Source: Eledone cirrhosa (taxonomy: Eukaryota). Taken from it: DNA of 64,000 nt. The stretch covers positions 8,184,001 through 8,248,000 of the forward strand of contig OZ024743.1 in NCBI GenBank assembly GCA_964016885.1, given 5' to 3'. Numbering within the stretch: the stretch's first letter is position 1; the number at the start of each line of letters is the position of its first letter. The notes beneath the pieces are model-generated. The model ran no database searches, had not been told where the DNA came from, and saw only the letters and a list, made by a program, of their open reading frames with translations. Position numbers and translations under genes: made by a program. Shown in pieces: positions 20,772 through 26,410 of this stretch.

Positions 20772-20894
20772 AGTAATAATAATAAATTTGAAGACTAAAA
20801 TCCAAAGAAGGCTCGATAAGGATAATCAGAAGATCCCGTTAAGGGTGAAAGCAGCGATTCTTTGCTTAAACTTTAATCTGTTATTTTAATAAAT
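20772..20894 (+). mobile_element. Short (TA)n-inserted element with a decayed hammerhead
   Basis: aat c[a]gaaga t ccc-gttaa-ggg t GAAA gcagc; same ends as 54995-55170. Confidence 0.6.
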
Positions 20895-21024
20895 ATATAT
20901 ATATATATATATATATATATATATATATATATATAGAGAGAGAGAGAGAGAGAGAGAGAGAGAGAGAGAGAGAGAATAAGGAAAAGCGAAGTAGTTTCAG
21001 ATGTTCAAGTCCTTTAATAATAAT

Positions 21025-21098
21025 GCCGTGATATATATTTCAATGGCGACACTGGCCACACTGTTCTGTGTGCGAGTGTCGTGACATCATCAGACAGC
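21025..21098 (-). ncRNA. Type I hammerhead ribozyme (inverted copy of 22269-22342)
   Basis: Reverse complement of the 22269 motif; one change (acggc versus acagc) keeps stem I as a G.U pair. Confidence 0.8.
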
Positions 21099-22268
21099 TT
21101 GTTACATAATAAGGTTATGTTTCCGAGGCAATCCAAATTGAATCGACATGGGAACGGATGAAATGCGTGCTTTTGGGTTTATCACCCGTTCCCCTGTGAG
21201 TACCAATTCACCCCCACCGGTCTGCGCGTGCGCATGTCCGAAGGAAGTTGACCATTGGCTACCGCAGATTTTAACGGAATTCGCTTAGTCATTTCAGCCT
21301 CTCAGTGACACAATGGCCCGTACCATAGTTTACTGCTACCCATCACGACTGTGGTAGTCAGTCGAAAGCCAGAGGGGGTGGGAGAGTGTTAGTTTTTACA
21401 GGTCCTAATACTACCTCTCACCTAGCGTGGACAGTACGACTGACCTTCAACTCAAAGGGAAAATAAACTTAATTCTAGGTATCATGATTTTACATTGTAA
21501 GTTAAGAGTGAGAGTTGGAAATAAAAATTAAAGTCCTAAATCAAGTATCAGAAATTATAAATTAAACAATTAAAAAATTAAAAAAATTAACAATTAGTAA
21601 TTAAAAGTTAGAAATTTTTTTTTTCTTCCAGTGAGAATTCGGATTGAGGTGAGTAAAAAAATATAGATTGAAGTGAGTAAATAATATGGAGAGAGATGTT
21701 TAAGTAAGAAGTTCTGAGAGGGGTTCTGGTGTCACAGTTACTCTATCCACATATTGAACGACAGTGCCGTACATTAGAACGGAGGGTAAGCTACAGCATT
21801 CAAGGCATTAGTCAATCTGGTACAGTCATAATTTCCATCACATGGAACAATACCAAAGAAAAACAGACATAGAAGAAAAAATGCAAAAACACAGAGTACA
21901 TATATGCAAAATGATCCATATGATGGTCAATCTGTCCATGTATAGATTGAATTGAGGGGGCTTCTGTTCATATGCGATTTGGTGCAGGGAAATAGGGGTT
22001 TATCTTATTTTTTGTTTCTGTGTATTTATCCTGCCGAAAGTTACTATTAGGTCCGTCCAGTTTCAGGGGTTTCCATCTCCATGGTAGAGGGAATTTCCGG
22101 GGCAGCTCATGGTTGGTTCCTCTCTTCTCCACCATATCGGTTACATCGTAAAGCGCTCAACTAATTGGAGCTAAATTATTGGTGATAAACCCAAAAGCAC
22201 GCATTTCATCCGTTCCCATGTCGATTCAATTTGGATTGCCTCGGAAACATAACCTTATTATGTAACAA

Positions 22269-22342
22269 GCTGTCTGATGATGTCACGACACTCGCACACA
22301 GAACAGTGTGGCCAGTGTCGCCATTGAAATATATATCACAGC
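22269..22342 (+). ncRNA. Type I hammerhead ribozyme
   Basis: gctgt CTGATGA t..cgacact..cacac..gtgtg..agtgtcg..t GAAA tatata TC acagc. Confidence 0.85.
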
Positions 22343-22560
22343 ATTATTATTAAAGGACTTGAACATCTGAAACTACTTCGCTTTTCCTTATTCGATATTT
22401 ACTCCGTCACTCCTATGTGGAAAAAGTAACTTGAGTGCTTGAATTGAATTGCATCAATATTTACCCTAATATATATATATATATATAAATCAAGGTCAAG
22501 CAAATAGATAAAAAGTTTTAAAATAAATTTCAAAATGTTTTACTGTACTTACTATATGTG

Positions 22561-22640
22561 ACTTTACCGCGGTTTCTGATCCCCAAATAAACAGATAATC
22601 CAAGCGGATTTCCATTGAGAAAGATATCGTCGTCAGAAGT
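22561..22640 (-). ncRNA. Hammerhead ribozyme in the loop of a fold-back (arms 22487-22550 / 22637-22701)
   Basis: Minus strand: actt CTGACGA c gat...atc a GAAA ccgcgg TA aagt. Confidence 0.75.
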
Positions 22641-23273: not shown

Positions 23274-23708
23274 ATGAGAGACGTAAAATAAGAAAATTAT
23301 AAAATTAACTTACTTACTTAAAAATCACTTCCAACTAATTAGTTTCTGGAATGGAGTAAATATATTTTCCGAAGAATCATATAGAAAATCATTCCGTCAT
23401 CAGGAAAGTCTTTTCCGTATAGATTCTTTTTGAATTTGCCACAGACGAAGAGGCAGTGATTTTCTCAATGGCTTGGATTCCAGTCCACGCTTCGCTATTT
23501 CCATTCCACTGAATTATTTTTTTAATAAGTTTCCAGTGTCCTCGCTATGCCTGGAGACCTATACGGAAAAAGACTTTCCTGATGACGGAATGATTTTCAA
23601 TATGATTCTTCGGAAAATATATTTACTCCATTCCAGAGACTAATTAGTTGGAAGTGATTTTTTAGTAAGTAAGTTAATTTTATAATTTTCTTATTTTACG
23701 TCTCTCAT
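23274..23708. mobile_element. Fold-back element (arms about 23274-23421 / 23560-23708) with two opposed hammerheads
   Basis: Near-perfect inverted arms of about 148 bp; homologous to 26125-26410; left end abuts (TA)n. Confidence 0.8.
23327..23409 (-). ncRNA. Hammerhead ribozyme with long stem II
   Basis: Minus strand: actttc CTGATGA c ggaatg...cattcc a GAAA ctaattag TT ggaagt. The plus-strand twin at 23573-23655 has GAGA instead of GAAA. Confidence 0.75.
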
Positions 23709-23984
23709 ATTATTGTTCTGCAACCCCATGCATTGAACCACATTGTTAATAAGACAAAACCTATATATTTGCTAGCATTGATATGCATCTGTATGTATAT
23801 AAATGTTACTAGATATAAATTCCTTATATATATATATATATATATATATATATATATATATATATATATATATATATATATATATATATATATATATATA
23901 TATATATATATAATGTGTGTGTGTGTGTGTGTGTGTGTGTGTGTGTGTGTGTGTGTGTGTGTGTGTGTGTGTGTGTGTGTGTGT

Positions 23985-24600
23985 AAAACGTAAATAGAAA
24001 TAATAAGTATTTTTTTCACCCAAGTGAACTTAGTCCCTTACAATTCGAACATATGTATGTTTATATTTGTGTTTATCTTGTATATTCAATTATATTACAC
24101 GGCTCAGAAAAACTTCTTTCTTTGAGCTATTTAATTGTAAGTGACTATTTTGAGTTTCTAACTCAATATCTGATATTGTCGGCTCCTTCTTGTCGAGCTA
24201 ATTTAAATGTCGTGTAAATCCGGCTGCTATTTTTAGCAGCGTATGTTTATAATACATGCTAGGTTCTGATGCCATGTTCGTTATTTCATATTCTTATACT
24301 ATTCAGTCTTCTGATATACTTAGAAGTGGAGGGATTACAAATTTTTACAACCACTGAAGAGCAGAAATTTGGTAATTTCCTTCGCTCTATAAATTGCGAA
24401 ACAGCTACCAAAGCTGTCTGGGTGTTTCAGGCAGTGTTTCAGGTTCTTCTTTTTCTTGATTTATTACTTTAAATTGATTCTGGCGAAGCATATTGTTATA
24501 GTTAGTATTTTTTTAACACTAGTGAACTTGGTCCCTTACAATTCGAACATATGTATGTTTATATTTGTGTTTATCTCTCTTGTATATTCAATTATATATA
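23985..24600 (+). mobile_element. Hammerhead-bearing element with about 90-bp terminal direct repeats (24005-24095 / 24503-24596), pLTR- or retrozyme-like
   Basis: Repeated agtatttttt...gtgaactt.gtcc.ttacaattcgaacatatgtatgtttatatttgtgtttatc...tgtatattcaattatat; flanked by (GT)n and (TA)n. Confidence 0.65.
24347..24425 (+). ncRNA. Hammerhead ribozyme with canonical GUC site
   Basis: acaacca CTGAAGA gca...tgc GAAA cagct-accaa-agctg TC tgggtgt. Confidence 0.85.
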
Positions 24601-24870
24601 TATATATATAAATCAGGAAAGAAGGTTTACATGGTTTGCTATACATATATATATATATATATATATATATATATATATATATATATGTATGTGTTATATA
24701 TATATATATATATATATATATATATATATATATATATATATATATATATATATATATATATATATATATATATATATATATATGGAAAGTTATATTTTAA
24801 ATTGTTGGGTTACAACTAGTAAATATTTATAACTGATATAAAAGCACTCGACAAATATTTGGAGTATATT

Positions 24871-25229
24871 TACAATATTAAATAAATGGAAACTATATTT
24901 ATAAAACCATATTTATTTCATTATATATATTTCGGGGATATCATATTAACAATATGCTATGCCTTCCTCAGACAAAATACAATATAATCAGTTTTATAGA
25001 TAAATATATTCGACATACCGTTATAACACCGACTTGCATTTGCCAGTTAAACCTCTTCAAATGCAAGTCGGTGTTATAACGGTATGTCGAATATATTTAT
25101 CTATAAAACTGTTTATATTGTATTTTGTCTGAGGAAGGCATAGCATATTGTTAATATGATATCCCCGAAATATATATAATGAAATAAATATGGTTTTATA
25201 AATATAGTTTCCATTTATTTAATATTGTA
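24871..25229. mobile_element. Near-perfect fold-back (172-bp arms, 15-nt loop) with two opposed hammerheads
   Basis: Arms 24871-25042 and 25058-25229; loop ccagttaaacctctt. Confidence 0.85.
25121..25186 (+). ncRNA. Hammerhead ribozyme (inverted twin at 24914-24979)
   Basis: tattttgt CTGAGGA a gg.ata.catatt-gtt-aatatg.tat.cc c GAAA tatata TA atgaaata. Confidence 0.8.
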
Positions 25230-25822
25230 TATATATATATATTTATGTATGTATGTATATGTGTTATATACTTATATTGACTGTTGAATGGCTCTGTTAT
25301 ATTTAACCATTCTGTCGAGAGCTTTATTCGATTTGTGATATTTTGCATTCTCGCAATAATACACAACTGAATCATTCGCTTAATAGAGGTGTTACCTCCC
25401 TTGCTGAATCCCACGAGGGGTCAGTAATAGCTACACTATCTATAGCATATTGGAGCAAAACCCGTTGAAAACACGACTGCCTTGTTCATCATCTCACCAG
25501 ATGCCCAACATTCTTTATGTAGGCGGACAGTACCTGATTTGGAGTCGCAGAAACCAATACTGGATTTTACCATCAGTCCAGGGTCTGGGAAAGTATCAAC
25601 ACATATATTTTTATTGTTTGACCCGAATTACTTGGTCGTTTTGATTTTGGGTGTGCGGATGATATGTTTAACCATCATCTCAGTGTGTTTGGCCCTTAAC
25701 GTATGTTGTAGCTCTGATTCATATGATTCATCGAGCGCTTGCCACACATATCGGACGTTGATTTTCGTTAATTCCTGAGCTGAAAACGATTCTCGCTAAT
25801 TTATATTTATATATATATATAT

Positions 25823-26410
25823 ATTATAAAGAATTAGTATATCTAGTAACATATATATATACACAGATGCATACTTATGCTAGCAAATATATAGGTTTTG
25901 TCTTAGTAACTTTGTGGTTCAATGCATGGGGATGCAGAACAAATAATTTGGAGAAAATTATAAAGAATTAGTATATCTAGTAACATATATATACTAATTC
26001 TTTATAATTATCTCCAAATTATTTTGTCGAGCAAAAATTGGCCAAAACTGCTACTATAGTAACGGTCCGGCTGCTGTCTTCATAACAAACCACTCTTCAC
26101 TGATTGACCTCGATGTCACGTGATTGATTCTTTTGAATTTGCCACCGACGCAGTAGGCAGTGATTTTTTCAATGGCTTGGAATTTAGTCCACGCTTTGCT
26201 TTTTTCCATCCACTGAATTATTTTTGTATAAGTTCCCTGTGTCCACGTATTGCCTGAAAACTTAGCTGAGAATAGACTTCCCTGATGACGAAAGGCTTCT
26301 CCGTACGTTTCTTTAGAAACTATGTTTATTCCCTTTCAGAAACTAATTAGTTGGAGTGAAATTTTAGTAAGTAAGTTAATTTTATAATTTTCTTATTTTA
26401 CGTCTCTCAT
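25823..26410 (+). mobile_element. Composite non-coding element in (TA)n, related to 23274-23826
   Basis: 26125-26410 matches 23420-23708; 25823-25946 is the reverse complement of 23709-23826; internal hairpin 25942-26023. Confidence 0.7.
26276..26357 (+). ncRNA. Hammerhead ribozyme, same family as 23327-23409
   Basis: acttcc CTGATGA c gaaagg...cctttc a GAAA ctaattag TT ggagt; stem II covaries with the 23.3-kb copy. Confidence 0.75.

Follow-up and report, generated by a model that had tools for sequence, protein, structure and literature searches.

A probable stack of Penelope-like retroelement 3' ends in TA tracts of Eledone cirrhosa, and a twin hairpin-like motif that may account for their one-sided tails

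The published insertion pattern of Penelope-like retroelements (PLEs) is an inverted, 5'-truncated copy with a tail at one end (PMC8557442, section 6; likewise PMC3846280), and (TA)n is the reported target of almost all families of the Hydra clade (PMC8557442, section 11). The origin of inverted pairs with a one-sided tail, called unresolved in PMC8557442, is answered just partly by the later study of the Poseidon element of Anolis, PAc (Frangieh et al. 2024, PMC11167929), whose protein introduces nicks into both strands of AT-rich DNA in vitro, extends each strand and is predicted to be a dimer, whose reverse transcription (RT) starts at two internal RNA sites bounding the tail, and for which hammerhead cleavage is dispensable. 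(What is credited to PMC11167929, PMC3846280, PMC4209133, PMC7229834, PMC13282606 and the preprint cited below refers to part of each source.) Here we describe positions 20772-26410 of a 64,000-nucleotide stretch of Eledone cirrhosa DNA (contig OZ024743.1, positions 8,184,001 to 8,248,000), which is called the window throughout. This region is probably a stack of 5'-truncated 3' ends (pseudo-long terminal repeats, pLTRs) of several PLE families, mostly Hydra-type or mobilised by Hydra-type proteins, that landed serially in TA tracts and whose tails may have a two-hairpin origin.

Compared with the pLTRs of Hydra-clade endonuclease-bearing (EN+) PLEs (Craig et al. 2021, PMC8557442), the stack has in common 5' truncation, an inverted copy at the 5' end, a tail at one end, a hammerhead ribozyme motif and (TA)n targets. 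It differs in having tails of 73-115 nt rather than 30-40 nt, and in that most pairs retain just 50-300 nt of element. Pairs, tails, hammerheads and TA targeting are all published features; the pile-up itself is ordinary PLE debris, and as a unit the array appears to be without function. A duplicated motif at the bases of the tails is apparently a previously undescribed cis-element.

Head-to-head pairs and hammerheads of the stack

The window is AT-rich, animal-type DNA with abundant microsatellites. Nine insertions of about eight families lie within 20772-26410 (Table 1), so that the claim of an earlier note on this DNA, that at least seven different elements are stacked here, is borne out. 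The eight element starts it listed are all real boundaries, although G starts with its tail at 24784 and a ninth, decayed element (I, about 25270-25810) was overlooked. It described the setting as a microsatellite field; TA tracts do divide the elements, but simple repeats are not the majority of the sequence (720 of 5639 nt, against 5406 of 60,600 nt in the window). Smaller stacks are present where it placed them, near 44.4-45.7 kb and 54.7-55.3 kb, and its reading of repeated insertion at TA agrees with ours, although the pairs were not named as Penelope-like pLTRs and their one-sided tails escaped it. Six of the ten insertions of the window fall inside 5.64 kb (P 0.005 under uniform placement, for a stretch picked post hoc as dense), counting each pair as one and leaving out a hammerhead match at 47245 as probable chance.

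Table 1. Elements of the stack and Hydra-clade coding remnants in the window. Hammerhead cores in the stack are complete by the descriptor given in the text unless noted.
Feature	Position	Strand	Hammerhead core	Anatomy
Hydra-clade PLE RT thumb fragment	19431..19781	+		E 4e-27 with profile of 44 homologs; 44.6% to the 55277 open reading frame
Pair A	20772..20890		20827 (5' side missing, truncated copy)	inverted last 54 nt of tail plus forward copy cut inside the core
Pair B, main copy	20974..22180	-	21093-	starts 9 nt before twin-motif copy (22171-22152); ~950 nt without detected coding remains; short end at (GA)n/(TA)n tract
Pair B, inverted copy	22181..22470	+	22274+	213-nt arm leading into a tail of 77 nt, which begins with motif variant ACTC/GAGT (22401-22439)
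Pair D	22487..22812		22636-	66-nt arms; 110-nt right tail with motif variant GTTC/GAAC (22707)
Pair D2	22941..23056		no intact core	old, degenerate; no twin motif
Pair C1	23274..23824		23403-; 23579+ (GAAA to GAGA)	115-nt right tail, motif GTTC/GAAC (23715-23741)
Element F	23985..24597	+	24354+ (5-pair stem III)	direct partial tandem of 498-nt non-coding unit (direct repeat 90/100); both motif copies (24102, 24182)
Pair G	24784..25228		24971-; 25129+	178-nt arms, 15-nt loop; left tail 87 nt with motif ACTC/GAGT (24865-24843)
Element I	25270..25810	+	decayed remains near 25656	motif at 25711; end at TA tract; left boundary uncertain
Pair C2	25823..26410		26282+	left tail; forward copy: long-end sequence, motif copy 2 (26011-26035), 240 nt, core, short end
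5'-truncated Hydra-clade PLE	55277..57790	+	57694 (3')	RT, CxCx5C linker, GIY-YIG; one stop at 56597; end 43 nt past cut site, at TA tract

Seven of the insertions (A, B, D, D2, C1, G and C2) are head-to-head pairs, with their 3' ends directed outward into TA or TA-compound tracts and their hammerheads likewise pointing outward; F is a tandem. TA tracts separate the insertions, and no element is interrupted by another. In every pair (7/7) one arm ends short and the other continues into a tail, with tail lengths of 73-85 nt in other pairs of the window. The tails are element sequence, since they recur in second copies (families A, C, D2 and H): the A family recurs at 54995-55170 (A tail 58/61 identical to 54995-55048), the right tail of C1 is the left tail of C2, the D2 tail is common to 50965-51044 (58/69), and second copies of family H (44990, 55175, 59518) show the same one-sided behaviour. 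More head-to-head pairs, most of them tailed on one side, lie at 5841-6410 (flanked by long, degenerate TA arrays that mirror each other, 5248-6031 and 6293-7004), 16560-16966, 44990-45131, 45140-45345, 50853-51044, 54722-54954, 54995-55170, 55175-55236 and 59518-59680. Two short unique segments between TA tracts of the stack (23069-23144 and 24611-24645), with no match elsewhere in the window, are possibly orphan tails.

The two arms are identical at 212/213 positions in B, 99% over 178 nt in G, 151/156 in C1, 66/71 in D and 29/38 in D2. C1 and C2 match at 251/300 positions and are therefore separate events of different age; with arm identities running down to about 75%, insertion was repeated at different times, which supports recurrent, independent use of TA tracts as targets. 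The same figures bear on the possibility that sequencing or assembly produced the inverted pairs as fold-backs, which we consider very improbable. Palindromes beside long microsatellites are indeed hard to assemble (PMC8557442, section 6), but here young pairs show 1-5 changes between their arms and old pairs about 25%, the arms end at family-specific points with the tail on one side, and the same anatomy occurs in an unrelated contig (L058). A search of sequencing runs listed no RNA dataset with this sequence; three entries from one sample share 0.53-0.57 of its sequence words but may be the source material and so give no independent support, and four smaller shares (0.05-0.15) do not count as evidence. 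Nor is it credible, to more than a very slight degree, that the palindromes are DNA transposons resembling miniature inverted-repeat transposable elements (MITEs), which duplicate TA and carry hammerheads incidentally. TA does flank the inverted ends; however, arm length and tail side vary within a family (C1 vs C2, A vs 54995-55170, the H copies), leaving no fixed terminal inverted repeat, F is a direct tandem, and RT-encoding loci carry a matching hammerhead and motif. The variable arms largely refute the MITE interpretation.

Hammerheads were identified with a descriptor of type I (core CUGANGA plus GAAA, stems I-III and an NUH site), which finds 13 complete examples in the window, eight of them within 20772-26410. 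By comparison, 300 dinucleotide shuffles of this region, microsatellites taken out, gave a mean of 0.017 complete hammerheads (none in 295 and one in five), and a mean of 1.46 bare cores against the nine observed, the ninth being the point-mutated 23579+. The earlier note had counted about ten hammerheads on both strands, and this stands, with eight complete, one point-mutated and one truncated, and with cores on plus and minus strands. The identification rests on our own descriptor because Rfam detects none: no hammerhead family reached the gathering score or appeared among 38 matches up to E 10. Rfam microRNA matches in the region were rejected as palindromes and microsatellites.

These hammerheads resemble the minimal metazoan PLE hammerheads (Cervera and De la Pena 2014, PMC4209133) in being of type I with a long stem II, a short stem I and a palindromic stem III, in forming opposite-strand pairs 100-700 nt apart, and in the presence of many families per genome. 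The short palindromic stem III, a mark of the minimal class (PMC4209133), is seen in seven of the eight complete stack examples. Unlike the set described there, the stack packs eight hammerheads into 5.6 kb, and F has what is predicted from its sequence to be a stable 5-pair stem III.

Clade assignment and a twin motif ahead of Hydra open reading frames

One coding remnant in the window is a 5'-truncated RT-GIY-YIG open reading frame (ORF) spanning 55277-57226, which matches a profile of 44 full-length homologs. Its C-terminal part (translation of 56600-57226) has GIY-YIG, the CxCx5C linker, CxxC and CxH and is without CCHH, features shared with the Hydra clade of PMC8557442, to which we therefore assign it; the Pfam GIY-YIG match (E 0.0075) is below the Pfam cut-off. 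RWK and DKT motifs occur in the 44 homologs, and the window ORFs are truncated before these positions. The fragment at 19431 covers the RT thumb only; a TA tract immediately precedes it, 1 kb to the left of the stack, and by eye it resembles the Hydra-1_Obim consensus (PMC8557442 supplement). Ahead of its CxCx5C linker, the 55277 element carries an insert, about 55-70 codons long and N/P/S/T-rich, that recalls the asparagine-rich inserts seen in Penelope ORFs of rotifers (PMC3846280). Remnants of broken Neptune-like PLE RTs are present at 51591-52544, adjoining the relative of D2, and at 3604-3906, and D2 itself is probably from another (Neptune-like) clade.

A homolog-alignment scan of metagenome contigs yielded 78 related loci outside the window (from the best 80 of 481 relatives; about 65 families), 56 of which have a complete sense hammerhead. 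Between the hammerhead and the start codon lies the motif GCT(C/T)...YGAGCACT. Among the 36 ORF starts with 150 nt of upstream DNA, the strict pattern is present twice in 21 (16 families), once in nine (8 families) and not at all in six (4 families), compared with one match in 66,645 nt of ORF body; the two copies are spaced 52-83 nt apart (median 62), and at several one- and zero-copy starts a variant second copy is visible by eye. The 3' ends of elements lie just ahead of one or other of these copies. For 18 hammerheads with a TA tract within 200 nt, eight elements end 41-59 nt after GAAA and are motif-free, and six end 102-123 nt after GAAA with one motif copy included. In comparisons of 5' and 3' pLTRs, the distance from the end to the motif copy that follows is 3, 2, 5 and 3 nt, the fourth case lying at a contig end. 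Among six curated Hydra consensus sequences inspected by eye, one includes both copies and starts 2 nt ahead of copy 1, and two end about 25 nt after copy 1. In four loci a TA tract lies exactly at a putative RT-start position, directly before a motif copy of an element that carries on past the tract (L001 454-503, L009 2994-3060, L042 2518-2560, L046 973-1016); either the insertion hit the start site of the element itself, or TA was gained in priming.

The duplicated motif was not found in searches of full-text literature, in the main text or supplement of PMC8557442, or in the supplement text of PMC11167929; subscription papers, figures, Repbase notes and a preprint supplement could show it. 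The words 'hairpin' and 'stem-loop' are absent from the PMC8557442 main text, though the twin motif is visible in its Hydra consensus sequences.

Within the window, variants of the motif open eight of 11 tails and lie 4-9 nt beyond the short end as set by arm divergence. The forms are ACTC/GAGT in B, G and two pairs outside the stack, GTTC/GAAC in C1 and D, GTTC/GAGC in the A family and GCTC/GAGC in F; none was found in D2, its relative or 16560-16966. Family H, which is not among the 11 ends, has the motif 7-8 nt past its short end. A motif profile was trained solely on 38 outside copies, with leader columns dropped since an AT-rich leader favoured all ends; it was made in two parts, and MAFFT left the 5' half of the motif unaligned. 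Over the 11 ends this profile gives a Fisher P of 6e-6 or 6e-7, and its best match in the whole window is the B inversion junction (22171-), with other labelled copies ranking 9-291 and two beyond the top 400. The motif likely pairs as a hairpin: the stem cells of 116 letter-scored instances include 6/464 double changes where 0.7 are expected, albeit with relatedness not controlled and with probably spurious matches among the weak instances. Window copies ranked lower under a pairing-aware score than by letters alone. In the left arm of C2 (25941-26035) the sequence passes directly from where motif copy 1 begins to the similar beginning of copy 2, with 37 nt recopied, which we read as a template switch between the twin motifs.

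Several points weigh against these assignments. The stack elements have no nucleotide or profile match to coding PLEs, and BLASTN against the 78 outside loci returned nothing below E 0.33; their clade is therefore inferred, and their assignment to PLEs depends on anatomy and motif. The G hammerhead looks Neptune-like. As for the motif, the 8/11 pattern was formulated after the tails had been inspected, just four or five of the 11 ends fall below 0.05 singly with the outside-trained profile, and five of six shifted controls are flat but the +12 nt shift is low (0.004-0.018). The stem is broken in 34/464 cells, so that support for pairing is modest, and it forms in eight of 13 folded copies. Among outside loci, four of the 18 hammerheads with a TA tract after them belong to neither end class, and the diverged L047 has an end-to-motif offset of 21 nt. 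In favour of the Hydra assignment, the short stack elements have TA or TA-compound tracts at their ends. The leader motif is clear in B, F and I, diverged in A, C, D and G, and absent in D2.

A two-hairpin origin of the tails

These observations suggest that two hairpins fix two RT starts and thereby produce the tail. Two protomers of the RT-GIY-YIG protein would load on the two hairpins, each target end would prime one cDNA 2-9 nt upstream of its own hairpin, and both cDNAs would terminate early and join head to head. Each pair would have one short and one tailed arm because its cDNAs start at two sites and then join, and the hammerhead would be copied with the rest owing to its position 22-78 nt upstream of the short end. 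Less securely, TA tracts that were split and grew again might attract later insertions. More tentatively still, and with rather less than even confidence, we propose a two-site RNA loading code in which twin hairpins seat an RT-endonuclease dimer and their spacing alone sets tail length, non-coding mini-elements retain just the hammerhead and both hairpins, and a genomic tail may recruit the enzyme to adjoining TA.

The scheme is like that of PAc in its two tail-bounding RT starts, both-strand nicking and extension, and predicted dimer. PAc belongs to another clade and its RT starts in an AC-rich stem-loop inside the ORF (PMC11167929), unlike the Hydra loci, where the putative starts are in the 5' leader, each ahead of one copy of the duplicated motif.

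The same elements could instead have arisen by other chemistry, with the motif read as DNA by the endonuclease or marking the site at which it resolves the intermediate, and the inverted arm made by self-priming on an antisense template. Self-priming on antisense RNA has been proposed for head-to-head junctions (PMC3846280), the tail is needed for endonuclease recognition in Drosophila Penelope (cited in PMC11167929), and PMC8557442 attributes the tail to endonuclease resolution; in addition, several junctions are palindromic (G, 45140-45275) and covariation in the motif stem is modest. However, two motif copies fit two end classes at the same small offset, and the sole in vitro data put both tail borders at RT start sites (PMC11167929). 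We regard this DNA-level chemistry as possible though doubtful.

Under the two-hairpin scheme, the duplicated cis-element turns the question of the one-sided tail into a simple in vitro test, and an enzyme recruited by tails would, if that part is true, make pile-ups sequence-guided. The motif also provides a short signature with which to find and classify non-coding Hydra derivatives that are otherwise labelled unknown or MITE in repeat libraries.

TA targets, read-through RNA and non-coding units

It is plausible that each insertion leaves new TA targets, making landing self-reinforcing. No element end was detected beside many of the long TA tracts in the window, which suggests that occupied sites attract more insertions; TA at the ends could instead be a product of priming or of later growth by slippage. 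Nor is stacking confined to this genome, since in six of 24 outside loci of at least 3.4 kb (L006, L009, L017, L036, L068, L071) a second PLE family lies beside the first, a proportion with no baseline for comparison. In the part cited here, PMC13282606 reports hotspots of transposable elements at the 100-kb scale only.

The earlier note had further supposed that a transcript through this region could be cut or form long double-stranded RNA (dsRNA). Duplex is the likelier product: when the read-through RNA is folded, base pairing is predicted for the cores of B, C1, G and D, element F has no hammerhead fold at minimum energy, and minimal PLE hammerheads cleave poorly and as dimers only (PMC4209133), so that cutting is the less likely outcome. 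This bears on whether selection maintains the stack, as a ribozyme array or as a source of dsRNA or small RNA against PLEs. Duplexes of 143-213 bp are predicted, and PLE small RNAs have been reported in a rotifer; on the other hand, cores are decaying (23579, 20827, D2, I) and are buried in the predicted duplexes, and pairs of the same kind are scattered across the window. Selection on the stack thus seems improbable to us.

Families B, C and F look like non-coding units, with no coding remains detected by profile search. Unit F holds both motif copies and the hammerhead within 498 nt, unit C (the forward copy of C2) runs for about 517 nt from long-end sequence to short end, and the B unit would be about 1285 nt, judging its continuity from one copy. 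A WRWK peptide after the B motif was considered as a Hydra N-terminus and rejected, since the N-terminal profile is empty in B, C2, F and I (best E 0.97). F, C and perhaps B resemble the non-LTR (non-long terminal repeat) retrozymes of animals (PMC7229834; bioRxiv 10.64898/2026.07.22.740005) in being non-coding, hammerhead-bearing and derived from pLTRs, and the twin motif ties such retrozyme-like units to a specific PLE clade. Unlike retrozymes as described in the cited part of PMC7229834, they are arranged as incomplete tandems or as inverted pairs, with no strand carrying more than one hammerhead, and tandems of two or more complete hammerhead units, which characterise retrozymes, were not found: F has one unit and a 100-nt part, and C and B are single units. 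The main copies of B and C2 begin at the long end, as would be the case were the first RT to halt at the start point of the second, on a circular or tandem template; two cases point this way.

GC-rich patches lie just upstream of the pLTR in element sense at 21224-21258 (minus strand) and 6127-6172 (plus strand) and are possible internal promoters. They include CCAAT, GCGCAYGCGC and AAGATGGCG words, resembling NRF1 and YY1 sites.

Elsewhere in the window, a dispersed repeat of about 190 nt, resembling a short interspersed element and often in short tandems (70-91% identity), occurs at 9198-9616, 29342-29736, 33009-34450, 36341-36539, 39365-39527, 40295-41320 and 58396-58872. Tandem arrays with 18-, 42- and 58-nt units occupy 60625-64000, 30240-31073 and 14067-14480.

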